Of a stretch of DNA of 44,056 nucleotides, positions 3,976 to 44,056 are shown one piece after another. The stretch lies in the IMG/VR virus record IMGVR_UViG_3300024999_000022; one strand, 5' to 3'. Every line of letters begins with the position of its first letter. Position 1 is the first letter of the stretch. Made by a program: the position numbers and the translations under genes. The notes beneath the pieces are model-generated. The model was not told the DNA's origin. It did not search any database and was given only the letters and a program-made list of their open reading frames with translations. The stretch comes from a virus.

Positions 3976-4241
3976 GTTGACCTCCTTTTCTTAGCTGGAT
4001 AATCTCGCACGTCTTCGTATTCCTTCTTCTTAATAGGTGATTTCCACTTCTCTTTTAATGGAAGTTTAGTTGAGCAACCTAGCGAAAGTAATGCTTGGCA
4101 CGTTAGCTTACCACAATCTGGCAATCTAATAACCTCTCCACAGTGTCCACATCGTAGCGTTTGAATTGGATGAAGATACTTACTATCTCCCAAATAACCA
4201 GCTACATCATAGCCATCTTGTTTCCAAAAATGTAGATTCAT
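3972..4241 (-). CDS. Small Cys-rich protein (second gene of the cassette) with basic tail
   Basis: 89 aa, CGHCGEVIRLPDCGKLTC. AAGGAGGT SD upstream. ATGA overlaps at both ends. Confidence 0.6.
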   Translation of the reverse strand: MNLHFWKQDGYDVAGYLGDSKYLHPIQTLRCGHCGEVIRLPDCGKLTCQALLSLGCSTKLPLKEKWKSPIKKKEYEDVRDYPAKKRRST

Positions 4242-4426
4242 TGCCTACCTCCTTTGCAATAAACAACTATCACCTTAACAAGTTCATATTCTGGAAACCA
4301 TGGACTATATTTAGCGTTTTTTGACCAATTATCTGCTACACCATTGTTAATGTAACCAGCAAAGCAAGGCGTATTGTTATTTATACATGCCCTATTATTG
4401 CAAACGCAAATCATGGGTCTTGACAT
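4238..4426 (-). CDS. Small Cys-rich protein (first gene of the cassette); start placed at the internal ATG preceded by an SD
   Basis: MSRPMICVCNNRACINNNTPC. aaaAAGGAGGTGtgct lies directly before the ATG at 4426. The ORF-track start at 4486 lacks such a signal. Confidence 0.55.
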   Translation of the reverse strand: MSRPMICVCNNRACINNNTPCFAGYINNGVADNWSKNAKYSPWFPEYELVKVIVVYCKGGRQ

Positions 4427-4555
4427 AGCACACCTCCTTTTTTGATTATTCACGCCTGCACTCTTCGCGCGCTTACCTGAACCCATCGAGTCTTCGGACT
4501 AGCAAGAAATGCAGGATAGAATAATCAAGTTTTTAACGTACTTAACCATATATTA

Positions 4556-4584
4556 AGTATATCATACTGATATCAAAAAGTCAA
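4556..4584 (-). promoter_or_regulatory. Sigma70-like promoter of the early-promoter family, on the minus strand, driving the Cys-rich cassette
   Basis: Minus strand reads TTGACT-17 nt-TATACT followed by TAATATATGG. The extended -10 is identical to the promoter at 32451-32479. Confidence 0.6.
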
Positions 4585-4928
4585 GGCTTTCTTATCCACT
4601 CTTTTACAGCCCAAATACCACCAGATATTATACTTACAGTTGTTATAAAAACAGCTAAACCTATTCCAAGTTTTTTACCAACTCTCCATGCAGTCTTAAA
4701 ATCGGTAACATCAGTATTTAAATCTATTAAACTAGCCATTTGTACACTTATTTTAGCTAGTTTTTCAGCCATTTCATGATCATGTATCTTTCTTGTTTCA
4801 CGATAAGCTAAACGTTCTTCTTCTTGAAGTTGCTGTGCTATTCTGTGGTCATTAAATTCAGTTCTTACAATATGAACTTCTTTTTTTATATCAGCTATTT
4901 CTTTTTCATTAACCTTAACATGTTCCAT
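4581..4928 (-). CDS. Tail-anchored coiled-coil membrane protein, unknown function
   Basis: 115 aa. Charged helical N-terminal two-thirds, then a C-terminal hydrophobic segment GIGLAVFITTVSIISGGIWAV. Confidence 0.5.
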   Translation of the reverse strand: MEHVKVNEKEIADIKKEVHIVRTEFNDHRIAQQLQEEERLAYRETRKIHDHEMAEKLAKISVQMASLIDLNTDVTDFKTAWRVGKKLGIGLAVFITTVSIISGGIWAVKEWIRKP

Positions 4929-4947
4929 TAGTTTGCACTTTAATTAA

Positions 4948-5589
4948 TTAAACCTCATAAAATATAAAATCTAAGCTAAAATTTAAGCTAGCACTTGCAC
5001 CAGAAAGAGAAGTAACTCTAAATAAATATTTTGCATTAGGCGCTAAAATCCATTCATTAGAAGCTCTATCAGCTCCACCAGCTTTAGATGTAGCAGAAGC
5101 TGAGCCAGACCTTTTCATACATAAAGAAGAACCATCAGCAGTAATAGTTGGAGCTTTAAAAATAGTGGTTAGCGGAGTATTAGCGCTGGTGTCATTTCTG
5201 TTCATTATTGCTAATGGAGTACCATTTGCTGAAGTTGTTGTTGATTTAAAAAAATCAATCTGCATTGCGATATCTCCTTCTGTTTCCCATACCAAATGCA
5301 CTGATTTAGAACCAGTAACAATTAGGTAATTAATTACTGCGTTATTGACTATAGCTGTATTAATTTCACAAAAACTAAATAACAGCCCGTCATGATTTTT
5401 AGAATGTACAAACTCAATATTTTTTCTAGCTCCTGAATTAACTGGGTTAACTAATAGTTGTGTTTCTTCAGTTGCAGTATTAATTTGAACTCCATCATTA
5501 AAGACTGATATTCTTTTAACACCTTTTCCATCAGCATAATTTAGATGTTCAGCTCGTTCTATATCCGAGATTGATGTTGCGTTAGACAT
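4948..5589 (-). CDS. Hypothetical structural-module protein
   Basis: 213-aa ORF tightly packed in the tail-gene run. Ser/Thr/Asn-rich, beta-like composition. Confidence 0.5.
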   Translation of the reverse strand: MSNATSISDIERAEHLNYADGKGVKRISVFNDGVQINTATEETQLLVNPVNSGARKNIEFVHSKNHDGLLFSFCEINTAIVNNAVINYLIVTGSKSVHLVWETEGDIAMQIDFFKSTTTSANGTPLAIMNRNDTSANTPLTTIFKAPTITADGSSLCMKRSGSASATSKAGGADRASNEWILAPNAKYLFRVTSLSGASASLNFSLDFIFYEV

Positions 5590-5594
5590 ATTGT

Positions 5595-8300: not shown

Positions 8301-8311
8301 TTATTTTTTTA

Positions 8312-9427
8312 TTAGAAGAAAAGTCTTTTATTTTGGTCGTTACTTCCACTATTAGAAAATAAGAAATCATAAATTGAACTTGCAAATCCACCTCCAGTAT
8401 TTTGAGGTATTGAATTTAAAACAGTAGAGCGTATTTCTTGCGAACTAACCATAGGAAATTGTGATGATAATTTGGAAATAGCTTCGTCAGCATTTTCAGA
8501 AGTTAAATCTCCAGCATCAATATTTTTAGATATTTCATCATATACAGCATTTCTTTGACTAGTTTCATCACCTCCTTGAATTATATTATAATTTTCTTGG
8601 AAAGAAGCACCCGGGTCTAGTCTAACCTTTGGATTTATCTTTTTTAATTCGAGAAGTTCCGCTGAGGTTATTTGTTTGTCCGTACCTTTAGCTGAAGCCA
8701 TCTTCATTTCCTGTGTAGTTTTTGCTATTTGTAACTTAGCAGCTTGAAGTTTCAAGTCTGATTCTTCTATTGTTCGTTTATATGCTTCCTTATTTGCCTT
8801 CTTAAGTCTTTTCTCCATATCTTTTGTAGAACCGCTTGTTTTAAGACCAAGAGCCATTAGAGATGTTTTTAATGCATCTTTTTTAGTATCATTTGCTAAT
8901 TTAGTTTCATATTCACCTAATTTTGAAGTAACAGATTCAAATGAATCTCCAAATGTTATTCCTGCTTTAGGATATTTAACCATTAATTCACGTTTCTGGT
9001 TTACTTCTTGCTCTCTTATTCCATAACGTGCAGCAAGTTCAAGATTTGCAGCTTGAATTGCTTGTTGTTTAACATTAGCAGTGTCGGCAAGAGCCTGTAG
9101 TTTATTTGACGCAATGTTTTGTGCTTGAGCTTGTTCTCCACGAATAACTCCTAACGCTTGTGGAAGATTTTCAATAGCCGTATTTTGATTCATCGCTGCT
9201 GTTTTTGCTGCAGTCAATTCATTTAGTGTTTTAGTATAATCAGTCTGAAGACCAGGTAACCCAAGTTCATTTGATATTTGTGTGCGAATTCCTAAAAGGT
9301 CTCCTGGAGCTGCTGCTGGAGCTGTTGTAGCTTGAGCAATATTAGCCGAAGAATAAACCTGTTGAGGAGTTACAGTTAGCGGTTGAGCTGGTGCTAGTGC
9401 TGAATTAAGAGATATTTGTTCTGCCAT
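8312..9427 (-). CDS. Coiled-coil structural-module protein
   Basis: 371 aa. Ala/Gln-rich N-terminal half with heptad-like runs (QAQAQNIASNKLQALADTANVKQQAIQAANLELAA). Confidence 0.45.
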   Translation of the reverse strand: MAEQISLNSALAPAQPLTVTPQQVYSSANIAQATTAPAAAPGDLLGIRTQISNELGLPGLQTDYTKTLNELTAAKTAAMNQNTAIENLPQALGVIRGEQAQAQNIASNKLQALADTANVKQQAIQAANLELAARYGIREQEVNQKRELMVKYPKAGITFGDSFESVTSKLGEYETKLANDTKKDALKTSLMALGLKTSGSTKDMEKRLKKANKEAYKRTIEESDLKLQAAKLQIAKTTQEMKMASAKGTDKQITSAELLELKKINPKVRLDPGASFQENYNIIQGGDETSQRNAVYDEISKNIDAGDLTSENADEAISKLSSQFPMVSSQEIRSTVLNSIPQNTGGGFASSIYDFLFSNSGSNDQNKRLFF

Positions 9428-15269: not shown

Positions 15270-15601
15270 TTGTTCATCTCAGCTCCAATCAAGGATTCCT
15301 TCCTCCGAAGTTCTCTTGCTTGTGCGTCGAGTTTTAAATATGTATAAATTTTGTCTATTCTTGAAAGGTTATGTGGATTTCCTAGCATTACATCTAGCTC
15401 CATCAAATCTCTTCCTGCTAGCAACTGTGCAATTTCTGTTATCTTATCCATGATTCCATAATTGAACATTTGCTCTTTCAAACCAAGAAAATCAGCTATC
15501 TCTAGATTCTCCATGGTCAATCCTACATCCTGCATTTCTGTGGGAATTGATTGAATCTTATCTGATCCTTGTACTTCTTGTACTGGTTGTAATACTTCCA
15601 T
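15263..15601 (-). CDS. Hypothetical structural-module protein
   Basis: 112-aa ORF overlapping both neighbours by a few nt. Confidence 0.4.
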   Translation of the reverse strand: MEVLQPVQEVQGSDKIQSIPTEMQDVGLTMENLEIADFLGLKEQMFNYGIMDKITEIAQLLAGRDLMELDVMLGNPHNLSRIDKIYTYLKLDAQARELRRKESLIGAEMNKW

Positions 15602-16395
15602 TAGCTTATAATTTCCTTAGAAAACCAAATTTGTCTAGTGTGTGGATCATATCCCCACTTGTCAATAAATCTCTTTCTATTTTCAACCTCTATTGCTCTT
15701 GATTCAATATCAAAATTAGAGTCTTGTTCCGTGAATCTTGTTGAACCTTCACGATGCCAATACCATGACTTTGCGCTCATTATTAATTTTTTATTAAAAT
15801 TGTCTCTCATTCTTAAGAATAAATCAATATCTTCATGTCCTCCTCGTACAAATCTTTCATCAAATAATCCCACTTCCTTAAGGATACTTTTTTTACTCAT
15901 CCATAATCCACCATCTTGCATTTGTTCACCAATAAGTCCTCCTTCTGTTATTTTTGTTTCTGATAAATCTGAAAGATGAATTCCATCTATCATTCTTAAT
16001 TTACTGTGACAAATTCCAGTAACTCCAACATTTTCGTATTTAGTAAATGGTTCTATCATTGCTTCTTGCCAACCATTATAAACTTCAATATCATTATTTG
16101 CGCATACTATATATCCATCATTTTTACCAAGTTTAGAAATGGCTTTCTTGATACCCTTGTTACATGTTTTTGCAAATCCTAAGTTTTCTTTATTTTCTAT
16201 ATATATATCAACTATATCCTTTAAGAATGAAGCATCCATTGGACTAGCATCATTAACAGCTATTATTTCTGTATCTTTTGAATTATTTCTAAAACTTATT
16301 ATAGCTTCTATTGTTAATTCTCTTAGAAGATTATTAATGATGTATACTGGAATTACGATATAGGTTTTCATGCTTTTTTTTAAGTTTATTTTCAA
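15601..16395 (-). CDS. Family-2 glycosyltransferase
   Basis: YIVIPVYIINNLLRELTIEAIISFRNNSKDTEIIAVNDASP (GT2 N-terminal signature) and CANNDIEV (DxD-like). The start may be the internal Met (MKTYIV) because of overlap with 16334..17551. Confidence 0.7.
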   Translation of the reverse strand: MKINLKKSMKTYIVIPVYIINNLLRELTIEAIISFRNNSKDTEIIAVNDASPMDASFLKDIVDIYIENKENLGFAKTCNKGIKKAISKLGKNDGYIVCANNDIEVYNGWQEAMIEPFTKYENVGVTGICHSKLRMIDGIHLSDLSETKITEGGLIGEQMQDGGLWMSKKSILKEVGLFDERFVRGGHEDIDLFLRMRDNFNKKLIMSAKSWYWHREGSTRFTEQDSNFDIESRAIEVENRKRFIDKWGYDPHTRQIWFSKEIIS

Positions 16396-17551
16396 GTTCT
16401 AAATTATAAATTAAACCATCACTCATTGAACCAGAAATCTTTCTGTAGAAATATAAAACTTCTTTTATTCTCTTTATTGTTGCACCAGTTTCTGCTGCTC
16501 TTATCCAAAAATCCCAATCCTCTAATCCACTATTGAATGTTTCATCATATCCACCTATTTTCTCCCATAAGTCCTTCTTAAAAGCTGAACATGCAATGAG
16601 TTTATTTCCATTTAGTATCATCTCTAATGTTATATCCTCTGCCCAATCACTCTTGGATGAGCTTTCTCCAAATTCTGAATGATCAGTGGTTACAATATCG
16701 TAATGATCTAGCTCGTAAACAACTTTTTCTAGATATGTTTTTTCTAATATATCATCAACATCTAATGGTAATATGTATTTTCCTTTAGCCCTTCTTATTC
16801 CATCATTTCTTGCTGCAGATAAATTAGGTATATTAGAGATAACTACCTCAAAATTTCTATATGTTTGTTCCTGTATGCTCTGTAAGCATTGTGGAAGAAA
16901 TCGTTCATATTCTCCCCATACTGGTATAACTATACTTACTATTGGATCTTCAACTCCAATATTTGAAAATGTAGTACTTGAAAATTGATATGAATAAATT
17001 TTTTCTCCATTCCAATTACCTCCAAGTCTATGATTTGGCATAAAAAAGTAACTTGGTAATATATCTATTTTGTACTGTGTTTTTTCGTATATATCTGTAA
17101 GATATTTATTTCCACAATCTATCCATGGTTCTCCAATATAGTCCTTAGATAATAATCCATCAATAACTTCTTTTAAAAACTTATTTCCTTTAATTGCTCC
17201 AACTATAGGAGTCAATCTTCCAGGATAATGTACCTCGTTTTCGTAGCAAGTGAATGCTTCTCTATCTATTAATTCATCAATTGGATTTACACATTTACTA
17301 TCTGCTGGAAGAGCTATTCCTCCCATATCATAAACTGCTTCATATCTAACTATGTCAGCAACACCATGATATTTTTTTTCCTCCATTAACTTATTAATGT
17401 GTTTTCTATTTTTAAATGGATAGTTTTTTACTAAAAAGTTATCCCAAAGAATATATTTCCATTCTGGATGAGCATTTTTCCATGTATTCATCCATTCTGT
17501 TGGTGGTTCTTTATCTCCAACCCAAACTTGATGTATTATTTTTTCAATCAT
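16334..17551 (-). CDS. Two-domain glycosyltransferase: GT32-type sugar-binding (DXD-region) domain plus GT2 domain
   Basis: N-terminal half: IIHQVWVGDKEPP..W..AHPEWKYILWDN ... ADIVRYEAVYDMGGIALPADS. C-terminal half: VSIVIPVWGEYERFLPQCLQSIQEQTYRNFEVVIS ... ILPLDVDDIL. Confidence 0.7.
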   Translation of the reverse strand: MIEKIIHQVWVGDKEPPTEWMNTWKNAHPEWKYILWDNFLVKNYPFKNRKHINKLMEEKKYHGVADIVRYEAVYDMGGIALPADSKCVNPIDELIDREAFTCYENEVHYPGRLTPIVGAIKGNKFLKEVIDGLLSKDYIGEPWIDCGNKYLTDIYEKTQYKIDILPSYFFMPNHRLGGNWNGEKIYSYQFSSTTFSNIGVEDPIVSIVIPVWGEYERFLPQCLQSIQEQTYRNFEVVISNIPNLSAARNDGIRRAKGKYILPLDVDDILEKTYLEKVVYELDHYDIVTTDHSEFGESSSKSDWAEDITLEMILNGNKLIACSAFKKDLWEKIGGYDETFNSGLEDWDFWIRAAETGATIKRIKEVLYFYRKISGSMSDGLIYNLELENKLKKKHENLYRNSSIHH

Positions 17552-18063
17552 TTACCTATTGCCATTGCCCCACAAAACCTCATTCCTTCCTTTTCTGGAT
17601 ATCCATTAGGATTTACAAAGCAACACTTTATATTCATTACCTCACAAATAAGGTATATATTTTGAGCTACAAATCCAGCATCTAAGTATGGCATAAAATT
17701 TATTTCGTTTGGAGACTTATACGCTTGCATATTAGCATAAAACAATATTACCCTATCTGCTTTTTCTATCCATCCACGTCCTCCAACTAAGTTTTCAATT
17801 CCATCTTTAGTTTCAACCATTTCAATTGCTTTACGATTGCAAGAACTTGGTGCTAACATTCCGGATCTTAAGATGGTTTTCATCTCATCGTCACTAACGT
17901 TTTTGGTATAGATTCTTCTACTCCTTCGTTGTGACATGATCTTTAATAATCTATCTAAATCTTCGTTGTCATATTTTCCAAATTCAATATCTGCTATTTC
18001 TCCAGATAAAAGTTTTTTCTTTCTATCTTGATGTGCTAAATATCTACATTGAAAATTATCCAT
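17548..18063 (-). CDS. Nitroreductase-fold protein
   Basis: RRSRRIYTKNVSDDEMKTILRSGMLAPSSCNRKAIEMV matches the RRS.R.F ... APS..N signature. Confidence 0.6.
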   Translation of the reverse strand: MDNFQCRYLAHQDRKKKLLSGEIADIEFGKYDNEDLDRLLKIMSQRRSRRIYTKNVSDDEMKTILRSGMLAPSSCNRKAIEMVETKDGIENLVGGRGWIEKADRVILFYANMQAYKSPNEINFMPYLDAGFVAQNIYLICEVMNIKCCFVNPNGYPEKEGMRFCGAMAIGK

Positions 18064-28505: not shown

Positions 28506-28543
28506 ATTGTTTTTTTATTCTCTATATGTCAATTATACTTAAA

Positions 28544-28557
28544 CCCCAGAAATGCTG
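28544..28557 (+). promoter_or_regulatory. TATACTTAAACCCC motif, copy 1 (extended -10-like element without a good -35)
   Basis: Shares TATACTTAA with all the early promoters. The same 15-mer TTATACTTAAACCCC recurs at 28761-28775. Confidence 0.3.
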
Positions 28558-28761
28558 TATTGGTTTGTATTAACTGTTATTTGGTGTTTACAGTCTTTTG
28601 TGTTATAATATAGGGGTTTAAATTGAGTTGTAAGGTGTTTTAAGTTTTAAGTTGATACTCATACACCATTAAAGTGGTGCAATGTTGTTAGTGTTGTGTT
28701 TTGTGTGTTTGGTGTGGTTTAAATATATCTTTATATATATGTTCTTTACCTATATACTTAT

Positions 28762-28775
28762 TATACTTAAACCCC
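28762..28775 (+). promoter_or_regulatory. TATACTTAAACCCC motif, copy 2
   Basis: See copy 1. An additional overlapping TATACT precedes it at 28753-28758. Confidence 0.3.
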
Positions 28776-28804: not shown

Positions 28805-28833
28805 TTGACAAGTTTTTATCTATATGCTATTAT
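28805..28833 (+). promoter_or_regulatory. Sigma70-like promoter opening the early arm
   Basis: TTGACA-17 nt-TATTAT. Confidence 0.6.
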
Positions 28834-28899: not shown

Positions 28900-29034
28900 A
28901 TGAGAATAAAAACGTGGCGCGAGCTACAACAAAAGGAACGGGCAGAGTATGTTTATTTAACTTGGTTGCTAATTGCTCTAATGGCAATAGGTATACTGGG
29001 GAAAAGTGAAGTTTTATCTTTAATCAATAACTAG
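28900..29034 (+). CDS. 44-aa membrane miniprotein (below the ORF-track cutoff)
   Basis: MRIKTWRELQQKERAEYVYLTWLLIALMAIGILGKSEVLSLINN, with one hydrophobic helix. It is the first ORF after the early promoter and leader. Confidence 0.35.
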   Translation: MRIKTWRELQQKERAEYVYLTWLLIALMAIGILGKSEVLSLINN

Positions 29035-29065: not shown

Positions 29066-30424
29066 ATGGAAAACAAAACTTGTTCAAATTGTAATGGAAC
29101 TTTTGAGGTTGATGATATGGTGGTTCACAATGAAGATATATATTGTGAAGATTGTTTTAATTATTTATTTACTACCTGCAGTATCTGCAATCAAACAATC
29201 TCAAACGATGAGTCGCACTATATTGATGATGAGATGTTTTGCGATAGTTGTTTTGATAAAAACTATTATGCTTGTGATGATTGTGGGGATATTGTTAAGC
29301 TAGAAAATACTAACGAAGTAACAAACGAAAAACTTGTTTGTAATAGTTGTTTTGATAATTACCGAGAATGTGGCTCGTGTGGAGATTGGTTTGATTATAA
29401 CGATAGTGGCGGTTATTGTGAAGATTGCGACCAGTATTATTGTTGTGATTATTGCCACTCTTGTGATTGTGGCACTAGTAATGATAATGAAAGAAAGATT
29501 AATTTAACTCCCATCACTGGCAGTGATTTTGGCGAAATTGTTAAAATTGATACGCTAGTAGGTGTTGAAATAGAGTCGGAAGATGGTAATTTTGAAATTG
29601 CACAAGAAAAATTACTAGATTGTTGCGGTTATAGTCCCGATGGTTCGCTTGATAATGGTATGGAAGTACAAACACCACCAGCCAGCTTAAACGAATTAGA
29701 AAGAATAATTAATCATACTTGTAAAGTTCTTACTGATAATGAATTTGTTGTAAATAGTTCTTGTGGGTTGCATATTCACATCAACGCCAACAACAGCAGC
29801 TGGAAACAGGTTAGGAATTTTCTTTTAACTTATCTAATGTTTGAAGATGTTATCTATTCATTTTTGCCACCATCTAGAAAAAATGGAACTTACAGCAAAC
29901 CGCTTACTAATGATTTTAGTCAATTAAAACTTTTAAAGATTTCAAGTTTTAATGATTTTGAGGCGTATTGGTATGGCTCGGTTGCTGATAATATTGCTGA
30001 TTTTTCTTACCGCGAAGCGTCTAAAATATGTAACCCATATCAAAACGTGGAAGAATTTATGTCTGCCAGGGAAAAACTAGAAAAAGAATGGAATAAAAAG
30101 CGAGGCAAAGACTACCGCAAAGATTTAAAAAAGGATAAGTGGAATAATTCCAGATACTACGGGGTTAATTTGCATAGCTTCTTTTTTCGTGGTACTGTGG
30201 AACTTAGACACCATAGCGGTACACTAAATCCCATTAAGATACTAAATTGGATTCAATTCAATCTAGAACTTTTTAACAGATCTAAGCAACTAAATAGATC
30301 TTTACTTTTAAAAGCTAAGCAAGGAACTGGCAGAGATGCAATTGAGGCTATGTTTAATACTTTACATTTAAGTAATAAAGAGTATTTCTTGGCTAGATTT
30401 GACTTTCTAAACAGAATAAGATAA
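29066..30424 (+). CDS. Amidoligase (GS-like COOH-NH2 ligase, Pfam Amidoligase_2 type) with four N-terminal zinc-ribbon units
   Basis: VGVEIESEDG, DGSLDNGMEVQTPP, SSCGLHIHINA, YYGVNLHSFFFRGTVELRHHSGTLNP. The N-terminal 135 aa contain eight CxxC pairs. Confidence 0.75.
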   Translation: MENKTCSNCNGTFEVDDMVVHNEDIYCEDCFNYLFTTCSICNQTISNDESHYIDDEMFCDSCFDKNYYACDDCGDIVKLENTNEVTNEKLVCNSCFDNYRECGSCGDWFDYNDSGGYCEDCDQYYCCDYCHSCDCGTSNDNERKINLTPITGSDFGEIVKIDTLVGVEIESEDGNFEIAQEKLLDCCGYSPDGSLDNGMEVQTPPASLNELERIINHTCKVLTDNEFVVNSSCGLHIHINANNSSWKQVRNFLLTYLMFEDVIYSFLPPSRKNGTYSKPLTNDFSQLKLLKISSFNDFEAYWYGSVADNIADFSYREASKICNPYQNVEEFMSAREKLEKEWNKKRGKDYRKDLKKDKWNNSRYYGVNLHSFFFRGTVELRHHSGTLNPIKILNWIQFNLELFNRSKQLNRSLLLKAKQGTGRDAIEAMFNTLHLSNKEYFLARFDFLNRIR

Positions 30425-30456
30425 AAATAAGAATAATTAACCTAAAAAATAATTTT

Positions 30457-31386
30457 ATGTGTGGACTATTTGGCTATATAACTAATAAAGATACTATTTT
30501 AACCGCAGAACAGCGCAAAAAAAGAACTAGAATTGCTATTGCGCTAGGTATTTCAATGGAAACAAGGGGAGAAGATAGCACTGGTATATCTTTGATTGGT
30601 AAGAAGTATGATATACTTAAAGCAATCAAGCCAGCGAGTAAATTTTTGCCAAAGATTAAAAATTCTTTTAATTTCAAACATAATTTACTAATTGGACACA
30701 CTAGATTTGCGACTATTGGAGCTATTACTAATCGCAACGCCCACCCATTTTTAATCAATAACATAATAGGAGCACACAACGGATCAGTAGATAACTATTT
30801 AACCTTTGACCATAAAGGAGAAGTCGACAGCGAGGTTATTTTTGCAGAACTAGGTAAGCAGAATAACGACTATAAAAATGTGTTAAAGCGTCTAAGTGGT
30901 TCGTTTGCCTTAACTTGGTACAATGTAGGAATTGAAAAGCTTTTTATTGCTAGAAACACTAACCCACTTGCTACCGCCTATATTAAGGAAATAGATACTA
31001 TTTTCTGGTGTAGTGAAGCTGAATACTTAAAGCCAATAATATCTACACAATTTGACCTCAAAAAGGTTAAAATTGACTATCCGTTAGCTGATTATGTGTA
31101 TGAAATTGATTTTAGTTTAAAGATAACAAAGAAAAAAATATCTTTTGCTGCTAGAGCTTACGCTGGAAATTACTACAACAACGGGCACTATAACGATTAT
31201 GATTTCAAAGAAGAAGAGTTAAGCGGTGTTGATGATTTTGAATATTGTGCTTACTGTGGAGAGCCTATCAACGAAGACGAAACTAATTTTTTCAGTGATG
31301 AGCTTGATTGCTATTTTTGCCCATTTTGTGCTGAAGCTGCAAGTTATGATGGTGCTAATGTAGTTCCTATAATTCTAAATAAATAA
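30457..31386 (+). CDS. Class II (Ntn) glutamine-amidotransferase-like protein with C-terminal zinc ribbon
   Basis: N-terminal MCGLFGY (nucleophile Cys2), GHTRFATIG, NAHPF, AHNGSVDN. C-terminal CAYCG ... CYFCPFC. Confidence 0.75.
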   Translation: MCGLFGYITNKDTILTAEQRKKRTRIAIALGISMETRGEDSTGISLIGKKYDILKAIKPASKFLPKIKNSFNFKHNLLIGHTRFATIGAITNRNAHPFLINNIIGAHNGSVDNYLTFDHKGEVDSEVIFAELGKQNNDYKNVLKRLSGSFALTWYNVGIEKLFIARNTNPLATAYIKEIDTIFWCSEAEYLKPIISTQFDLKKVKIDYPLADYVYEIDFSLKITKKKISFAARAYAGNYYNNGHYNDYDFKEEELSGVDDFEYCAYCGEPINEDETNFFSDELDCYFCPFCAEAASYDGANVVPIILNK

Positions 31387-31390
31387 ATAT

Positions 31391-31540
31391 ATGAAGCGAC
31401 AAGCTATTTTAAGCCTTAAAAGGTTTAAAGAATGGAAAAAGAAATGCAGTATTGATTTTTTAGAAGCTAATAAGCGCAGTATAAACAGCATAGAGCGCCA
31501 ACTAGAGAATGAGCTAATCAATATAATAACAAAAATATGA
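31391..31540 (+). CDS. 49-aa basic helical miniprotein
   Basis: MKRQAILSLKRFKEWKKKCSIDFLEANKRSINSIERQLENELINIITKI. Begins 5 nt after the previous stop. Confidence 0.35.
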   Translation: MKRQAILSLKRFKEWKKKCSIDFLEANKRSINSIERQLENELINIITKI

Positions 31541-31665
31541 GTATTGAAGACTACATCTTGGAGATGTCAACTATGGGAACGATGACAGACTAACTATCTT
31601 TTAGCACTTGCAAGCGATTGTGAGTGCTATAAAGGTCGCTAGAATAATTTTAAAACTATAACAAT

Positions 31666-31869
31666 ATGGAATTGATGATATCAGCACTAAACCTACAACT
31701 TAAGAGCGTAGAAAATCAATATCTCCCCTATAATTTTGAGTACAAGATTATGCGAAATACCGTCTTAGAAATAGCTACTGCTCTATTGATGTGTGATATA
31801 ACTTCTTCAGACGCTCGCATACTTAAAAAATTTATTACAGACAATCCAATATCAATATTTGAAGATTAA
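31666..31869 (+). CDS. Hypothetical small protein
   Basis: 67-aa ORF with no recognised motif. Confidence 0.4.
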   Translation: MELMISALNLQLKSVENQYLPYNFEYKIMRNTVLEIATALLMCDITSSDARILKKFITDNPISIFED

Positions 31870-31876
31870 CTAGTAT

Positions 31877-31905
31877 TTGACAACTAGCTTTTAATCTGAT
31901 ATACT
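31877..31905 (+). promoter_or_regulatory. Early-family promoter
   Basis: TTGACA-17 nt-TATACT followed by TAATATAC. Confidence 0.6.
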
Positions 31906-31963
31906 TAATATACAACCTAATAACTTAACACGTTAAACCCCGAAAGGGCAACTAACGCCAACA

Positions 31964-31989
31964 GGATCACTAACAAAGTGGTCTTTTTG
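31964..31989 (+). terminator. Intrinsic terminator about 60-80 nt downstream of the 31877 promoter
   Basis: GGATCAC-TAACAAA-GTGGTCT hairpin (6-7 bp with G.U pairs) followed by TTTTT. Confidence 0.5.
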
Positions 31990-32112
31990 GCTTTCCTATT
32001 TATGATCTATGTTAACATTGATTTGAACTAGTTAACATAAAACCAAGAACTTGACACGCAATTAGAGTCCAGGACTCCGAACATTTTTTATTCAAATTTT
32101 AAATTTACTGGA

Positions 32113-32150
32113 CTGTCTTTACGTATAATGTAAGACAGCAAATTTTCTAT
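32113..32150 (+). terminator. Terminator-like hairpin
   Basis: CTGTCTT(T)AC-gtataat-GTAAGACAG (9 bp, one bulged T) followed by the T-rich caaattttctattttta. Confidence 0.4.
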
Positions 32151-32190
32151 TTTTATGATTTTTTAAAAACCAAAAACATTGGTCGGGTTT

Positions 32191-32445
32191 TTATTTTAGC
32201 ATTTTATTATCTTTTAGTACAGCATACAGTTGTTCTGCTAAAGCATCCACCATTGTTTCGTTTAACTGACTATTGAGTTGATGTATAATTTCGTGAAAGA
32301 GTGTGGCTTCTTGTTGACTAACCTCTATTTTATTTGATATCCAAATTTCATTTTTATCTCGTCTTAATTGTCCACATTCGTCAATTTCCTTTATAATAAC
32401 CTTTATTTTGTGTCCTCCGATAGTTAGGTTATTTGGTATTTTCAT
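32191..32445 (-). CDS. Small HExxH protein (ImmA/IrrE-like metallopeptidase motif)
   Basis: EIWISNKIEVSQQEATLFHEIIHQL. Start placed at the ATG (MKIPNN), 12 nt inside the TTG start used by the ORF track. Confidence 0.45.
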   Translation of the reverse strand: MKIPNNLTIGGHKIKVIIKEIDECGQLRRDKNEIWISNKIEVSQQEATLFHEIIHQLNSQLNETMVDALAEQLYAVLKDNKMLK

Positions 32446-32450
32446 AATAC

Positions 32451-32479
32451 TTGACAAGATTAAAATTTAGGAGTATACT
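32451..32479 (+). promoter_or_regulatory. Early-family promoter for the second amidoligase pair
   Basis: TTGACA-17 nt-TATACT followed by TAATATATGG. Confidence 0.6.
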
Positions 32480-32500
32480 TAATATATGGGGTAGAGTAAA
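32472..32500 (-). promoter_or_regulatory. Candidate divergent promoter for the HExxH gene, sharing the palindromic AGTATACT core
   Basis: Minus strand reads TTTACT-17 nt-TATACT. Its -10 overlaps the plus-strand -10 because AGTATACT is self-complementary. Confidence 0.35.
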
Positions 32501-32599
32501 CTCAATTATTTATTTGGAGCATATTACTCAATTCCTTAGATACGGACTGATGTACTCGCATAGCGGTATAATGGTTCTATAACAATTAATAAAATAAAT

Positions 32600-33574
32600 A
32601 TGAACAATTTTTATGATACTTTTAAGCTAGGTATAGAGGTAGAGGGAGAATTCTTTTCTGATTGTCCAGAAATTGGATTATCCCATTGGACAGTTGATGA
32701 AGATGGATCTATGGATGAAATTGGATTTAAAAATCTAGATACATTTTGCTGGGAACTTCAAAGTAAAGTAATAAAAAGTGAAGAGGATGAAAAAGAAACA
32801 CTTAATGATTTGTTAAAATTATTAAAAGTTAAATCTGGATTTGGAAGGGAAATAATTGCTACAAGAAACAATTCTTGTGGAACACATATTCATTTCAGCT
32901 TCAAAAAAGTAAGCGACCACCTACTTTATCTTTTCGATACTATTGAATTTGAAAAATACTTCTTTAAAAGATATTTATCATTTTTTAAGAATCAAAAATT
33001 CATTTCTAGGCTTGAAAATAAGTATTGTCGTGCTTTTGCTAGTAGAGAAAGTGGTAAATTTAACTTCTCACTATTAGATATTGAAAATAAGAAAAAAAAT
33101 AGAGATAAATATTTTTGGCTCAACGTTAGATCTATTTCACAAGGTACTGGTATTGAAATTAGGGTATTCCCACACATGCAAACAATATCTGGAATAAAAG
33201 AAGTGATTGAGTTTACTAAATCTGTTGTTAATGGATTTTATAATCTAAAGACAACACCTAAAAAACTTAAACTTATAAATTTTTTCTTTAACAATATTTA
33301 CAACAAAAGATTTGATGAGAAAAAACTTTCAGATCAAAAGCAAATAATATTCAAAGGTCTAGATATTAGAGATTCTTCTGATATTTCTGGAGATGTTATG
33401 ATTATGCTATCTAAATGGGCTATTAAAGCCCCTAAAACAATAGCTCCTACTAGAAGACAACGTAGACGAGAGCTATCAATTGAGACACATGATAGTGGAT
33501 ACAGCGTGGAATATATGGCTAATAATATTATAGGTCAATTTAACACTCCAACACGTCTTAGAGCACCATTTTAA
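32600..33574 (+). CDS. Second amidoligase (Amidoligase_2 type), no zinc ribbons, basic C-terminal tail
   Basis: LGIEVEGEFF, VDEDGSMDE, NSCGTHIHFSF, GTGIEIRVFPH. Tail APTRRQRRRE. Confidence 0.7.
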   Translation: MNNFYDTFKLGIEVEGEFFSDCPEIGLSHWTVDEDGSMDEIGFKNLDTFCWELQSKVIKSEEDEKETLNDLLKLLKVKSGFGREIIATRNNSCGTHIHFSFKKVSDHLLYLFDTIEFEKYFFKRYLSFFKNQKFISRLENKYCRAFASRESGKFNFSLLDIENKKKNRDKYFWLNVRSISQGTGIEIRVFPHMQTISGIKEVIEFTKSVVNGFYNLKTTPKKLKLINFFFNNIYNKRFDEKKLSDQKQIIFKGLDIRDSSDISGDVMIMLSKWAIKAPKTIAPTRRQRRRELSIETHDSGYSVEYMANNIIGQFNTPTRLRAPF

Positions 33575-33592
33575 TTAATAAAAAATAACTAA

Positions 33593-34348
33593 ATGTGTGA
33601 AATTCTAACATTAAAATACAACAAAAAGGGTATTAAGTTTGAACTAGAAGCAATAGAAACTGCTTTAAAGAACAATCCAGATGGTGCAGGATATGCTATT
33701 TTAAAGAAAAATAGAGATTCTTGGGAGCTAGTGGAAGAAATAAAATTTCACTTATCTCCTTCTAGAAAATCATTTGGTCGTACTGATGATTATGGATGGA
33801 AAATGTCAGAAGAGTATCAAAATTTTCTAAACTATTATCCAGAACAAGAATACGATTCACAGTATGTTTCTCTTGAAAAATTAGATAATCGTTATCAAAA
33901 AATTGCAGATGATTTCTATGAAAAACAAGCTGAATTGAAACCTGGACAAATAATGATAATGCACTTTCGTCTAGCTACTAGTGGATTTTCAGCTCAATCT
34001 GCTCAACCCATCTTAAATGGAAACTATCTCGTTATTCACAATGGAATCTTTAACTTAGATTCTATTCCTGGAGAAAGTGATACACTGTCATTTACAAGAT
34101 TGATAAATTCCAAATTAAAGGCATCAAATGTAAAAACTGTTTCTCAAGAACGTAAAATGTTAGAAGAGTGTCTGTCTAGTGCTGGTGGATATTGGTCTGT
34201 GTATATTTATTCTTGGAAAACAAAACAACTGCATTACTTCAAAAGCGAATTAGCTAGATTTAATGTTTCACAAGATGGTTTAATGTACTCCACAAGTGAA
34301 TATCGTTTTCCTCCAACACATCGTACAGCAGAAAGTCATCTTTTATAG
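33593..34348 (+). CDS. Second class II (Ntn) amidotransferase-like protein
   Basis: MCEILT (Cys2), NPDGAGYA, MHFRLATSG, SAQPIL, VIHNGIFN. Confidence 0.7.
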   Translation: MCEILTLKYNKKGIKFELEAIETALKNNPDGAGYAILKKNRDSWELVEEIKFHLSPSRKSFGRTDDYGWKMSEEYQNFLNYYPEQEYDSQYVSLEKLDNRYQKIADDFYEKQAELKPGQIMIMHFRLATSGFSAQSAQPILNGNYLVIHNGIFNLDSIPGESDTLSFTRLINSKLKASNVKTVSQERKMLEECLSSAGGYWSVYIYSWKTKQLHYFKSELARFNVSQDGLMYSTSEYRFPPTHRTAESHLL

Positions 34349-34603
34349 ATGTACTTTAATATTATACTCTTTTCTATCTCTGTATTCCTCGGCTTTACCG
34401 TTATTCCATTGAGAAATTGGTCTAATATATCCAACAACTCTACTAAAAACCTCACATAACTGAAAATTACGAAGAACTGGATCTACAAGATAACAATTTC
34501 TACATTTTATGTAAGTTTTATCTTGAACTCTATAGGGAACAAATTCTTCTCCTCGCTTAAGGTTTCTTTTGCAGTCGTGGCAAATGTATTTCATGCATTT
34601 CAT
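34343..34603 (-). CDS. Stand-alone NrdD C-terminal-like miniprotein (zinc ribbon plus glycyl-radical loop motif)
   Basis: CHDC ... CRNC, then VFSRVVGYIRPISQWNNGKAEEYRDRKEY. This resembles the conserved C-terminus of class III ribonucleotide reductases (R..GY..P...WN.GK..E...R). Confidence 0.6.
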   Translation of the reverse strand: MKCMKYICHDCKRNLKRGEEFVPYRVQDKTYIKCRNCYLVDPVLRNFQLCEVFSRVVGYIRPISQWNNGKAEEYRDRKEYNIKVHL

Positions 34604-37497: not shown

Positions 37498-38394
37498 ATG
37501 AAATTTATAAAATATGAAAAAATTCACAGACTAGGAAAAGAGGAAACAAATGGTATTTTGATAGGAAATTGCTTTATACAAGAAAAAATAGATGGTGCTA
37601 ATACTCAAATATGGATGGAAGATGGAGAAATTAGATGTGGATCTAGAAACAACATTTTAGAATCTGGTTTTAATGGATTTGTTGATTATGTCAACGAACA
37701 CGAAGGAATAAAAAGACTATTAACTGAAAATCCAGAATGGAGACTGTACGGAGAATGGTTAGTAAGACATACTGTTCAATACAACGAAACTGCCTACAAA
37801 CAATTCTATCTCTTTGACATACTAGTAGGAGATAAGTTTCTAACAACTGATGAAGTTTACGCTCATGCAATTGAGTACGATATCAAAACTCCAAAGCTCT
37901 TTGGATATATTGAAAATCCAACAATAGAACAACTACAAGAGTTTGTAGGTAAATCAGATTTAGGAGAATATGGAGAAGGAATAGTGATTAAAAACTTTGA
38001 CTTTGTAAACCAATTTTATAGATGTGATTATGCTAAACTTGTTACTGAAAAATTCAAGGAAACAAACTCCTTAGTTTTTGGAGGAAATAATAAACATTCA
38101 GAATCATATTGGGAAATGTATATTGTTAACCAATTCATAACGTTAGAAAGAATTAAGAAGATAATGCATAAAATACAGCCGCTAATAGAGAAGAAATTAG
38201 ACTTTGAGCATACTCCTCGTATAGCTGGAACTGTTCTAAATGACATGATAACAGAGGAAGCATGGACTATTTTTAATAAAGTACCATCAGTTAACAATAA
38301 ACTGTTAAAAAACTTAGCAAGTAGAAAAATTATCCAAATATATCATGATATACTAAATAATAACATCAGCGTTGCTGACCAAAAAAATGAGTAG
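37498..38394 (+). CDS. ATP-dependent RNA ligase (Rnl2-like nucleotidyltransferase)
   Basis: Motif I EKIDGAN (KxDG). YGEWL, EGIVIKN and AKLVTEKFKE follow in ligase motif order. N-terminal KYEKIHRL resembles the T4 Rnl2 N-terminus. Confidence 0.7.
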   Translation: MKFIKYEKIHRLGKEETNGILIGNCFIQEKIDGANTQIWMEDGEIRCGSRNNILESGFNGFVDYVNEHEGIKRLLTENPEWRLYGEWLVRHTVQYNETAYKQFYLFDILVGDKFLTTDEVYAHAIEYDIKTPKLFGYIENPTIEQLQEFVGKSDLGEYGEGIVIKNFDFVNQFYRCDYAKLVTEKFKETNSLVFGGNNKHSESYWEMYIVNQFITLERIKKIMHKIQPLIEKKLDFEHTPRIAGTVLNDMITEEAWTIFNKVPSVNNKLLKNLASRKIIQIYHDILNNNISVADQKNE

Positions 38395-39123: not shown

Positions 39124-39626
39124 AAAAAATTTATAAAAGAAATTGTCCATCATGTGGAAAAGAATTATTTTACGCTGATAATTCTAGTCTATGTCACTCT
39201 GAAAAGTTTAATCGTAAGTGTCATGTTAGTTGTGGAAAAGTTAGATATATTATAGATAAAAATGGTTGCTGGAATTTTCAAGGATCAATTAGCCGTACAG
39301 GATATGGGATGGCTAAAAAGAAGGGTATTAAGGCTACAACTGCACATAGAATTGCATATATTGAGAAATATGGGGAGTTAGATGATAATATTCAATTGGA
39401 TCATCTTTGTAGAAATAGGAAATGCTGTAATCCTGATCATCTTGAGCCAGTTACTAGAGAAGTAAATGTTCAGAGAGGGAATAGCACTAAACTAAAAACA
39501 GAAGAAGTTCTAGAAATAAGAAAAATAGGATCATCAATTAATCAGAGAAAAGTAGCAAAGATATACAATGTTAGTCAAACATTAATTTGGAGGATATTAC
39601 ATAAATTAGTATGGAAAAACATATGA
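39120..39626 (+). CDS. Free-standing HNH homing endonuclease (HNH_3-like) with C-terminal HTH
   Basis: GCWNFQGSISRTGYG ... AHRIAYIEKYG ... LDHLCRNRKCCNPDHLEPVT..VNVQRG. Confidence 0.75.
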   Translation: MKKIYKRNCPSCGKELFYADNSSLCHSEKFNRKCHVSCGKVRYIIDKNGCWNFQGSISRTGYGMAKKKGIKATTAHRIAYIEKYGELDDNIQLDHLCRNRKCCNPDHLEPVTREVNVQRGNSTKLKTEEVLEIRKIGSSINQRKVAKIYNVSQTLIWRILHKLVWKNI

Positions 39627-40054
39627 GAAAAATAGTTATGTTAACTGGATTACCAGCGGCAGGTAAAACTACTTTCGCAAAAAAACTTGTCTTAAAGGGA
39701 TATAAAAATATATGTAAAGATGATTTAAGGAATATGCTTGATTTTGGTTATTATTCTAATGATAATGAAAGAATTTTACTAGAGTGTAGAAATCAATTGA
39801 TAGAATATTTGATGGATGAGAGAAAAAATATTGTATTGTCTGATTGTAATTTTAACCCATACCACGAAAAAACAATTAGAAAAATTATAGAACAACATAA
39901 TTATTTTGAAGGATTTGGTAAAAATAGATATAAACTTGAAGTAAAACTTATTAATACACCATTGAAAGAGTGCATACTAAGAGATAGTCTAAGACTTAAT
40001 CCTGTTGGTAAAGAAGTAATAACAAAAATGTATGAGCAATATTTATCTAATTAG
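39611..40054 (+). CDS. pnk: Polynucleotide 5'-kinase (T4 Pnk kinase-domain homologue, stand-alone)
   Basis: IVMLTGLPAAGKTTFAKK (P-loop), ICKDDLRNM and IVLSDCNFNP parallel T4 Pnk ILTIGCPGSGKSTWA, INRDDYRQS and VIISDTNLNP. The start may be the Met at 39623 (ATGA overlap with the HNH stop). Confidence 0.8.
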   Translation: MEKHMRKIVMLTGLPAAGKTTFAKKLVLKGYKNICKDDLRNMLDFGYYSNDNERILLECRNQLIEYLMDERKNIVLSDCNFNPYHEKTIRKIIEQHNYFEGFGKNRYKLEVKLINTPLKECILRDSLRLNPVGKEVITKMYEQYLSN

Positions 40055-40508
40055 TGATACCCACTTTTTCCATTCTAGGATGAAAGAATACGAAAATGAT
40101 GAAGAAAGAGAAGATAAACTTCTAAAAAATTGGAAGGAAATTATCAAAAATGATGATATGGTTATACATTTAGGAGATTTTTGTTTTGGAGGAAGCACAA
40201 AAATGAAGGAATTAGTTTCTACTCTTCCAGGCAGAAAGATACTAGTTTTGGGTAATCATGATAATAAACCTCCATTGTGGTATATGGAAAGAGGATTTGA
40301 TTTTGCTTGTTACGAGTTTACTTGGAGAAATTTTATTTTTACACACAAACCAATAGAAAATACTAACGGAAAAATAAACGTACACGGACATCTACATCAA
40401 TTAAATAGTCACCATATTGAAGAATATCCTTGGTACAATAGTGAAAACTATTTTTTAGTATCAATGAAAGATAACAACTATAAACCTATTAACGTAAGCA
40501 CATTATGA
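40032..40508 (+). CDS. Small metallophosphoesterase (candidate RNA 2',3'/3'-phosphatase partner)
   Basis: ISDTHFFH, HLGDF, LGNHDN, VHGHLH. Confidence 0.7.
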   Translation: MSNIYLISDTHFFHSRMKEYENDEEREDKLLKNWKEIIKNDDMVIHLGDFCFGGSTKMKELVSTLPGRKILVLGNHDNKPPLWYMERGFDFACYEFTWRNFIFTHKPIENTNGKINVHGHLHQLNSHHIEEYPWYNSENYFLVSMKDNNYKPINVSTL

Positions 40509-43536: not shown

Positions 43537-44056
43537 AGAATAAAAAAGGAAATGGACTCATTGGAGGAATTATACTTTTTGCAATCCTAATTGTTGGAAT
43601 TGTAGCTGCTACAAAAGTATACTCAATTAGTCCAGGAAATGTAGGTGTTCTTATTTATAAGGGTGGACAAAGTACTAAGGGAGTTTCAGATACGCCACTA
43701 ACACCTGGATGGGGATTTAGAAAATTATTCGTAGAAGATGTTAAAGAATATCCAACGTTCTTACAGACTGCTATCTGGACTAAGAGTTCACAAGAAGGTT
43801 CTAAAGATGATGAAAGTATCACTGCTAACTCAAAAGAAGGTGTTCCAGTAAATATGGACGTTTCACTTTCATACACACTAGATGGATCAAAAGTTCCAGA
43901 TTTGTATGTTAAATATCGTTCAAGCATTAAAGATATCCAAAAAAACTTCCTAAGACAGTCTGTGAGACAAGCAACACAGGACGCGTTTGGAACTTATTCA
44001 GTTGAAGAGATTTATGGAGAAAAGAAACAGGAAATTGCATCAAAAATAAAATCATC
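43533..44056 (+). CDS. SPFH/band-7 protein, N-terminal part (open at the window end; continues at 128..503 after the overlap)
   Basis: MKNKKGNGLIGGIILFAILIVGIVAA membrane anchor, then SPGNVGVLIYKGG ... GWGFRKLFVEDVKEYP ... ANSKEGVPVNMDVSLSY. No stop before the window end. Confidence 0.8.
   Translation, partial: MKNKKGNGLIGGIILFAILIVGIVAATKVYSISPGNVGVLIYKGGQSTKGVSDTPLTPGWGFRKLFVEDVKEYPTFLQTAIWTKSSQEGSKDDESITANSKEGVPVNMDVSLSYTLDGSKVPDLYVKYRSSIKDIQKNFLRQSVRQATQDAFGTYSVEEIYGEKKQEIASKIKS
43930..44056. repeat. Terminal overlap copy 2 (identical to 1..127)
   Basis: Exact 127-nt identity with the window start. Confidence 0.9.

Follow-up and report, generated by a model that had tools for sequence, protein, structure and literature searches.

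Two divergent amidoligase–amidotransferase pairs in one phage genome: a reduced, ribbon-tagged variant of a widespread phage module

The virus genome IMGVR_UViG_3300024999_000022 of IMG/VR, the entire 44,056-nucleotide stretch of which is called the window in this article, carries two gene pairs on its plus strand, each composed of a ligase of the Amidoligase_2 family (P1 and P3) and a stand-alone class II glutamine amidotransferase (GATase) domain of the N-terminal nucleophile (Ntn) type (P2 and P4). These pairs represent a phage module that is widespread and already described, here in a variant that is reduced, doubled, and tagged with zinc ribbons. New are its minimal two-gene form, the presence of two divergent pairs in one genome, which was met in just one further lineage, a zinc-ribbon tag common to both partners, and a hypervariable patch on the ribbon array of P1. 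Ligase–GATase pairs are among the most widespread conserved phage enzyme pairs for which no experimentally established function was found in the literature; the role proposals found there are computational and date back to 2009, and no report of a tested activity was found for any Amidoligase_2 member. That the substrate is biochemically undefined, as a preliminary description of this DNA had it, was still stated in papers of 2021 and 2023.

Architecture of the two gene pairs

The four open reading frames (ORFs) are located on the plus strand (Table 1), and all motifs quoted for them in the preliminary description are found in their translations. Pair 1 is formed by P1 and P2. P1 consists of an N-terminal array of LIM-like zinc ribbons that is followed by a catalytic Amidoligase_2 domain with the fold of glutamine synthetase (GS) and GCS2. 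The Amidoligase_2 profile is matched with 91.3 bits against a Pfam cutoff of 22, and PHROG amidoligase families are matched as well. For the C-terminal domain of the AlphaFold model, which has a mean predicted local distance difference test score (pLDDT) of 86.4, Foldseek gives YbdK/GCS2 as the best structural match (1r8g, probability 1.0), next to glutamine synthetases, GmaS (γ-glutamylmethylamide synthetase), and glutamate-cysteine ligase (GCL), all with low TM-scores of ~0.3. Compared with GS, P1 is far smaller, and a dodecameric assembly is without support. No sequence link between the ligases and a solved structure was detected, family profiles included. Residues E168, E170, D192, S194, E200, H236, H238, R271, E379, R381, and H383 are invariant in the P1 family, and the catalytic set E-x-E / H-x-H / E-x-R is retained in 25 sequences. 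This pattern presumably resembles the metal and ATP ligands of GS.

P2 starts 32 nt after the stop codon of P1. It matches the Pfam family GATase_6 with an E-value of 1.8e-13 (51.1 bits, cutoff 27), in addition to GATase_4 and GATase_7, and the NCBIfam model of GlmS over the N-terminal half (residues 1-252 of P2 along residues 1-257 of the model, 2e-20). The alignment of P2 with GlmS from the PDB spans the motifs RGxDS, HTRxAT, NAHP, and HNG (GlmS residues 22-105 by sequence). A match to the NCBIfam model of EgtC is marginal (7e-4) and far under the cutoff of that model. Invariant in the P2 family are C2, R37, G38, H81, T82, R83, N108, G109, D124, C264, C267, and C291. Herein, R83, N108-G109, and D124 are the equivalents of the glutamine site, as aligned to the GlmS/GFAT motifs; in GlmS, we take R73 and D123 to be the glutamine-binding Arg and Asp, and N98-G99 to be the oxyanion hole. 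The C terminus of P2 forms one zinc-ribbon unit with Cys264/267/285/288/291.

Pair 2 is formed by P3 and P4. P3 contains no zinc ribbons and ends in a basic tail (residues 271-324, isoelectric point [pI] 10.9). Its homologue search gave one match only. The elements GxExExE, D35, S37, GTHxH, YxWLN, and GxExR are invariant in its family, and the same catalytic E-x-E / H-x-H / E-x-R set is retained in six P3-family sequences. P4 follows after a gap of 18 nt. On its own, it reaches GATase_6 with 4.6e-5 (23.9 bits), which is under the cutoff of 27. As modeled, it is nevertheless a class II Ntn glutaminase-type domain of αββα fold, because the P4 family profile matches the glutaminase domain of GlmS (1.1e-5), GATase_6 is matched by eight of 11 family members, and the AlphaFold model (predicted TM-score [pTM] 0.76, with a variable low-confidence insert at residues ~55-115) is matched by Foldseek to the Ntn domains of GlmS, PurF, and EgtC (4zfl/4zfj; E = 7.5e-8, TM-score ~0.55). 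M1-C2, DGAG, HFRxAT, HNG, and SDT are invariant between P4 and 10 database homologues, which fixes the residues C2, H124, F125, R126, T129, H149, N150, G151, S162, D163, and T164; the glutamine-site equivalents are R126, N150-G151, and D163. The two pairings of a ligase with a Met-Cys partner and the family assignments put forward in the preliminary description are borne out, by scores above the Pfam cutoffs for P1, P2, and P3 and by family profile and model for P4; PHROGs is in line with the Pfam assignments. Neither Cys2 nor the catalytic Glu, His, and Arg residues are lost in homologues.

Distribution and lineages of the pairs

A megablast search for close relatives among deposited phages gave no match, and single-protein scans of IMG/VR with P1 and P3 gave no match. 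Relatives were reached via a large protein database and alignments. The survey comprises 184 loci, 168 of which were added via family alignments, and custom profiles were run on all their ORFs; a pair was defined as a GATase on the same strand within 1.5 kb of a ligase. The GATase lies immediately downstream of the ligase in 101/101 pairs. The gap between the two genes has a median of 2 nt and is at most 5 nt in 58 of these pairs, and 93 of the 101 partner GATases start with Met-Cys. Such a strict order and tight spacing are typical of subunits of one enzyme. A GATase partner is present for 70 of 87 ligases in IMG/VR loci vs. 13 of 80 in contigs from cellular genomes.

Described as a tandem, duplicated module in the preliminary description, the two pairs of the window turn out to be alike at the motif level only. 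BLASTP E-values are 0.01 for P1 vs. P3 and 3e-4 for P2 vs. P4, with the similarity confined to the catalytic motifs, which rules out a recent tandem duplication. What the window holds side by side are two pair types that diverged long ago. Both types are also met singly in phage-sized contigs, type A (P1/P2-like) in L009, L010, and L014 and type B (P3/P4-like) in L005, L006, L007, and L008. At least two old lineages of the pair exist, and one genome can hold both. Type A ligases carry three to five N-terminal CxxC-x(12-18)-CxxC units and their partner GATases one C-terminal unit (6/6 pairs); type B pairs carry zinc-ribbon units on neither partner (5/5 pairs).

Two full pairs per locus were found among the 184 loci only in the window, in the groundwater contig L004, and in L015. 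L004 is 99.2% identical to the window across 12.6 kb and contains the same four genes. L015 (positions 1358-9377), a contig binned to a metagenome-assembled genome (MAG) of Candidatus Dojkabacteria, is an independent second case and holds two type A pairs, the ligases of which are 35% identical to each other. A RimK-like match lies just downstream of the L015 pairs, and the second GATase call there lacks the Met-Cys start and is perhaps mis-started.

The arrangement as such is common: 342 deposited phage genomes contain a P2-like GATase, including those of therapy-relevant phages of Pseudomonas, Klebsiella, and Escherichia coli, and an already described gene cluster has the pair at its core.

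The zinc-ribbon tag and its variable patch

The four-unit array of P1 (Table 1) is matched by Foldseek to the LIM domains of LMO2, LMO4, and PINCH. P1 alone reaches the Pfam LIM family with an E-value of 0.015, which is under the cutoff; the family profile matches LIM proteins of the PDB (CRP1, PINCH) with an E-value of ~9e-5, and Pfam LIM is matched by 41 of 95 array proteins. Prokaryotic LIM-type domains have reportedly been tied to peptide interaction, in work of 2011 by Burroughs, Iyer, and Aravind. Residues 1-135 of P1 have a net charge of −26 and a pI of 4.1. Over 71 arrays, the mean charge is −16, and 67 arrays are negative. Binding of DNA or RNA by the arrays is unlikely because they are very acidic.

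Ribbon units on a ligase co-occur with ribbon units on its own GATase (46/13/13/29, odds ratio 7.9, p = 4e-6 by a Fisher test that is uncorrected for shared ancestry), and they are both present or both absent in all 11 individually checked pairs (6 type A, 5 type B). The C terminus of the PaP3 GATase is likewise a Cys-rich ribbon. An exhaustive search that used just the array yielded 1,105 cluster representatives. The only catalytic Pfam domains among the best 95 of these are Amidoligase_2 (36 proteins) and the phiEco32-type COOH-NH2_lig (2 proteins). About 38 of the best 95 consist of an unrecognized N-terminal domain of ~300 residues followed by a C-terminal array; two to three of these domains are COOH-NH2 ligases, and for the others neither Pfam nor PHROGs gave a match. 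They may represent new enzyme families of phage peptide-modification systems. Judged by these domain combinations, the ribbon behaves as a tag common to enzymes of phage peptide-ligase neighborhoods.

One contig with such proteins is L016 (JGI 3300051198, positions 242-7777). Herein, three paralogues of 511, 355, and 422 residues share the unrecognized N-terminal domain and end in six, one, and two C-terminal zinc-ribbon units, respectively. The next gene encodes a ribbon protein with M20/M42-like peptidase motifs, as judged by eye, and is followed by a RimK-like ATP-grasp gene.

The array is also the place where most differences between the window and L004 lie. The gene of P1 contains 79 of the 105 nucleotide differences between them, and 69 of the 105 are within its first 600 nt (window 29066-29665 vs. 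L004 1223-1822). At the protein level, 28 of 33 amino acid changes fall into residues 1-155, with the Cys ligands retained. Codons 1-160 show a synonymous divergence (dS) of ~0.30 and a ratio of nonsynonymous to synonymous divergence (dN/dS) of 0.29 against a near-identical background. This stretch looks like a recombination patch or a hypervariable region.

Comparison with known systems

The closest known counterpart is the cluster that was named the peptidoglycan modification cassette and hypothesized to block superinfection (Duhaime et al. 2017, PMC5498523). Phages with this cassette or peptide-ligase cluster are PaP3, LUZ24, tf, UFV-P2, phiEco32-like phages (Bas89), RIO-1, 7-11, and Klebsiella Citrovirus. 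The full cluster comprises a COOH-NH2 ligase, Amidoligase_2, a long GATase, a RimK-like ATP-grasp enzyme, and a γ-glutamyl cyclotransferase (GGCT). As in the window, the cassettes of PaP3, LUZ24, and phiEco32 show Amidoligase_2 directly followed by a class II GATase in the nonstructural arm of a podovirus of ~45-77 kb, with a hypothesized function. However, the arrangement occurs once in the reference phages and twice, with divergent pairs, in the window; the GATases are 417 to 672 residues long there as compared with 251 and 309 in the window; and the four-unit LIM-like array of P1 is not present on the ligases of PaP3, Bas89, and Klebsiella phages. No COOH-NH2 ligase, RimK-like ATP-grasp enzyme, or GGCT was found in the complete window genome with Pfam, PHROGs, and custom profiles. 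By its gene content, the window is a reduced variant of the cassette and not a full member. It is an example of the two-gene core existing in the absence of the three further cassette enzymes, and thereby offers a minimal system for reconstitution. The cultured relatives PaP3, LUZ24, and the BASEL phages Bas87-93 offer a better experimental entry than the uncultured window phage.

Outside phages, MurT/GatD and AsnB/LtsA resemble the function proposed below. They are co-transcribed two-protein (or two-domain) systems, in which an ATP-dependent ligase activates a carboxylate of the stem peptide and a glutaminase gives the ammonia (PMC3267633). MurT/GatD pairs a Mur-ligase-like enzyme with a class I (triad) GATase, whereas a GS-fold ligase is combined with a class II Ntn domain in the window, and no homology was detected. 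The likeness is purely mechanistic and serves as an analogy. EgtA/EgtC of ergothioneine biosynthesis, with which PuuA/PuuD and GmaS plus N-methylglutamate synthase are grouped here, likewise combine a GS-superfamily γ-glutamyl ligase with a stand-alone γ-glutamyl-amide hydrolase of class II GATase fold. In contrast to the ergothioneine-type setting, no enzymes of the EgtB, EgtD, or EgtE type are present in the window, the setting is a phage, and EgtA and EgtC are without zinc-ribbon tags.

A third comparison is pupylation (PafA/Dop/Pup), in which GS-fold ligases join a γ-carboxylate to lysines of proteins, with a deamidation beforehand. Conceptually, it comes near a ligase that is paired with a glutamine amidohydrolase and acts on proteins, but the deamidase of the window pairs would have an Ntn instead of a GS fold. 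PafA and Dop are absent from the P1 fold-search matches listed. A Pup-like small tag protein beside the pairs was considered and rejected, as the adjoining small ORFs (28900-29034, 31391-31540, and 31666-31869) are conserved in the near-identical L004 only.

Proposed function and its alternatives

Tentatively, with a probability of roughly 0.4, each pair is read as a two-subunit, glutamine-dependent amide-forming enzyme that acts on a peptide-like target. The upstream gene would provide a GS-fold ligase that uses ATP to turn a carboxylate into an acyl-phosphate, and the downstream gene, in matching amounts, a free-standing Ntn (Cys1) glutaminase-type subunit. The latter would bind the glutaminyl or γ-glutamyl moiety and deliver nitrogen from glutamine, with the net result of a glutamine-dependent amidation of the target carboxylate, comparable to MurT/GatD or AsnB/LtsA with their unrelated folds. 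The target would probably be a cytoplasmic peptide-like molecule, either a stem peptide of a cell-wall precursor or a host protein. Two different specificities are most likely for the two pairs because they represent old, distinct lineages. Within pair 1, the acidic LIM-like unit on both subunits would be a docking or targeting tag in common. That the type A subunits bear the same tag argues for a macromolecular target and provides a handle for pull-downs. Formation of a complex, transfer of ammonia, and the identity of the substrate are inferred here from these features.

This amidotransferase reading is preferred because the partner is without an acceptor domain, because its best matches are true amidotransferases, and because co-translation at equal levels fits subunits better than a writer and an eraser. 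P2 and P4 consist of the Ntn glutaminase domain only, with no acceptor or synthase domain in the polypeptide; the only candidate ammonia acceptor would be the upstream ligase, in trans. They keep the Cys1 nucleophile, the Asn-Gly oxyanion hole, and the Arg and Asp by which GlmS holds the α-carboxylate and the α-amino group of glutamine. The best matches of P2 are GlmS, PurF, and AsnB. The fold and intact catalytic set of the ligase, the strict gene order with its narrow gaps, and the ribbon units common to both partners also count in favor, as does the fact that amide-bond ligases are the only Pfam-recognized catalytic domains joined to the array. Supportive context is given by the SU10/phiEco32-like assemblage, whose members carry the hypothesized peptidoglycan-modification cassette.

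Several observations weigh against this assignment. According to the papers that cite it, the 2009 study by Iyer et al. read the GATase as a thiol peptidase. A GATase–ligase fusion is not present among 110 GATases, and the C-terminal extensions of the long GATases are unlike ligases. The acidic charge of the arrays points to no particular target, and the test for ribbon co-occurrence leaves shared ancestry uncorrected. Furthermore, activation of free glutamate at its γ-carboxylate is common to all of the closest structural relatives of the ligase (YbdK/GCS2, GS, γ-glutamylmethylamide synthetase, and glutamate-cysteine ligases); the P4 model matches the γ-glutamyl-amide hydrolase EgtC as well as GlmS, with a weak match of P2 to the EgtC model of NCBIfam; and in Bacillus and Clostridium phages the ligase is partnered by a GGCT instead of a GATase, while large clusters hold both. 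Together, these relatives, the EgtC match, and the pairing with GGCT favor γ-glutamyl chemistry over simple ammonia delivery.

An alternative built on such chemistry is the addition and removal of a γ-glutamyl group. Herein, the ligase would join the γ-carboxylate of glutamate to an amine of a peptide, a protein, or a small molecule, and the Ntn partner would be no ammonia donor but an EgtC-like hydrolase of γ-glutamyl amides. It would take off or process the group, either as an eraser or within a route in which the γ-glutamyl moiety protects or carries only for a time. Established biochemistry offers EgtA/EgtC and PuuA/PuuD as precedents for such chemistry, and the retained Arg/Asp pair of the glutamine site suits a free γ-glutamyl moiety equally well. 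However, a writer and an eraser co-translated equally, at a median gap of 2 nt, would be futile unless pathway enzymes intervene, and genome scans of the window gave no ATP-grasp enzyme, COOH-NH2 ligase, GGCT, or other candidate for such a step. The best full-domain matches of P2 are, moreover, true amidotransferases. We regard this alternative as a close rival of the amidotransferase reading, at a somewhat lower probability.

Considerably less probable is an auxiliary metabolic module that makes or recycles a small metabolite (glutamine, an amide, or a γ-glutamyl compound), and in this way supplies nitrogen or amino acids in a metabolically poor host, possibly of the candidate phyla radiation (CPR). 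Several genome papers label the genes as auxiliary metabolic genes, although these claims are based on annotation alone. The closest full-length relatives come from a groundwater sample and from contigs that were assigned to CPR/DPANN MAGs by binning, and type B proteins are without a macromolecule-binding domain, both of which would suit such a role. It is at odds with the LIM-like arrays on both type A partners and the hypervariability of the array, which are ill-suited to a housekeeping small-molecule enzyme, and a GS combined with a glutaminase on free Glu and Gln would form an ATP-wasting cycle. The low share of related cellular-genome ligases with a GATase partner (13/80) further indicates that the pair is a feature of mobile elements and not a borrowed host pathway.

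A more far-reaching idea, for which the odds are similarly long, concerns the ribbon. The acidic LIM-like unit would be a modular docking tag that gathers phage ligases, Ntn hydrolases, peptidases, and other enzymes on a basic host macromolecule or on each other, for a pupylation-like glutamyl or amide marking and editing of host proteins. In an arms race, recombination would diversify its targeting domain, and each pair of the window would have a target of its own.

Decoration of a modified DNA base by the pair, e.g., an amino acid–derived side chain added or amidated on bases of the 5-hydroxymethyldeoxyuridine (5-hmdU) type, was suggested to us by amidoligase and glutamine amidotransferase domains of unassigned function beside thymidine hypermodification genes in viral metagenomic contigs (Lee et al. 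2021), but is highly improbable in a complete genome in which, in agreement with the preliminary description, Pfam scans that covered almost every ORF of 75 residues or more detected no dUMP/dCMP hydroxymethylase, 5-HMUDK, kinase/aGPT, aGPT-Pplase, TET/JBP, or DpdA (very divergent versions could escape) and no DNA polymerase, and whose strongly acidic arrays make DNA binding unlikely.

None of the three roles offered in the preliminary description, namely an amide-forming and trimming system on a host target, an anti-defense function, and synthesis of a small amide metabolite, is favored by anything specific to the window. PADLOC gave no meaningful defense or anti-defense match on the window, and literature searches for an anti-defense or counter-defense role of the pair found none.

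Genome and surroundings of the pairs

The window is a complete circular assembly of ~43.9 kb. At least 100 bases are shared by both of its ends (1-~130 and 43930-44056), and a Band_7/SPFH gene runs across the end junction, which together argue that the genome is complete and either circular or terminally redundant. By its capsid, portal, and adaptor, the phage is an SU10/phiEco32-like podovirus. Besides the virion and terminase genes, the minus-strand arm holds genes for lysis-type enzymes, for three glycosyltransferases, and for proteins that resemble nitroreductase and Cpn60. On the plus-strand arm, both pairs come first, followed by RNA ligase, adenine methyltransferase, HNH, PSTK/PNK-like kinase, and metallophosphatase; the rest comprises a Cas4-like nuclease, NinB, Band_7, an S24/S26 peptidase, and NinG. 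The closest full-length relatives of the ligases are on contigs binned to MAGs of Dojkabacteria, Paceibacterota, and Pacearchaeota, and a CPR-type host is plausible for the window phage.

Table 1. Coordinates of the gene pairs and of further features in the window.
Feature	Position	Strand	Remarks
P1, type A ligase, 452 aa	29066-30424	+	Amidoligase_2, Pfam 1.1e-25
Ribbon array of P1, residues 1-135	29066-29470	+	Four CxxC-x(12-18)-CxxC units at residues 6, 38, 70, 102
P2, type A partner, 309 aa	30457-31386	+	Stand-alone class II (Ntn) glutaminase-type domain, starts Met-Cys (MCGLFGY)
Zinc-ribbon unit of P2	~31246-31329	+	C-terminal
P3, type B ligase, 324 aa	32600-33574	+	Amidoligase_2, Pfam 1.6e-5, 25.4 bits vs. 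cutoff 22; PHROG amidoligase families
P4, type B partner, 251 aa	33593-34348	+	Divergent stand-alone class II Ntn glutaminase-type domain, starts Met-Cys (MCEILT)
Sigma-70-like promoter consensus match	28805-28833	+	TTGACA-17-TATTAT with TG; 11/12; upstream of pair 1
Sigma-70-like promoter consensus match	32451-32479	+	TTGACA-17-TATACT; 11/12; upstream of pair 2
HExxH ORF, 88 aa	32191-32457	−	Between the pairs; PHROG metalloprotease family 4e-4; phrog_1233 2e-13
Minus-strand arm	~1.7-28.5 kb	−	SU10-type major capsid protein (1.4e-47), adaptor, portal, large and small terminase subunits
GT2	15601-16395	−	Among virion genes, structural arm
GT2 with DXD region	16334-17551	−	Among virion genes, structural arm
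Nitroreductase-like gene	17548-18063	−	Amid glycosyltransferase genes
GT2+TPR+GT4, 761 aa	18332-20617	−	Among virion genes, structural arm
Cpn60/TCP-1-like protein, 461 aa	21102-22487	−	Match 4.6e-17, first ~190 residues only; adjoins capsid genes
RNA ligase	37498-38394	+	PF09414, 6e-25
PSTK/PNK-like P-loop kinase	39611-40054	+	
Metallophosphatase	40032-40508	+	

In the preliminary description, the pairs were the first large genes transcribed on the early arm, each behind a strong promoter. By position, they come first in the window, L004, L009, and L010; this placement is not conserved, as L015 has the pair in the middle of the arm, and in L007 it lies shortly before the terminase. Both promoter-like sites match the consensus well at sensible intergenic positions. 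The overall count of promoter-like sites in the region (33) does not, however, exceed that in shuffled sequences (37.6), and the consensus is that of sigma-70, which may not be the one of the host. A third, equally good site is located at 31877, and the site at 32451 overlaps the start of the HExxH ORF on the minus strand. This ORF was considered as a system component and rejected, since it occurs only in L004; it resembles an ImmA/IrrE-type metalloprotease that is short or fragmentary.

The divergent intergenic region between the terminase and pair 1 contains the 14-mer TATACTTAAACCCC in two exact copies on the plus strand (28534-28547 and 28762-28775) and one copy with two mismatches on the minus strand (28714-28727). 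These three matches at up to two mismatches were reached in 0/100 shuffles. Behind the −10 boxes at 31900 and 32474, the related sequence TATACTTAATATA is found. This may be a motif that is tied to phage regulation or to promoters.

Among the other genes, the three glycosyltransferases may serve glycosylation of the virion or of the cell surface, and the 461-residue protein may be a phage GroEL-like chaperonin or a piece of one. RNA ligase, kinase, and metallophosphatase lie close together and look like a tRNA/RNA repair set against anticodon nucleases of the host. RtcB is encoded a few genes downstream of the pair in the related type A locus L014.

Convergent with P4, an 86-residue ORF on the minus strand (34343-34603) combines a CxxC...CxxC zinc ribbon with the C-terminal glycyl-radical segment of the anaerobic ribonucleotide reductase NrdD (Pfam NRDD 3.7e-10, NCBIfam NrdD models, motif RVVGYIRP). 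L004 and, with 65% identity, L005 have this ORF conserved immediately behind their P4 homologue. By analogy with GrcA/YfiD, which serves pyruvate formate-lyase, its product could act as a glycyl-radical domain of a stand-alone, "spare-part" kind.

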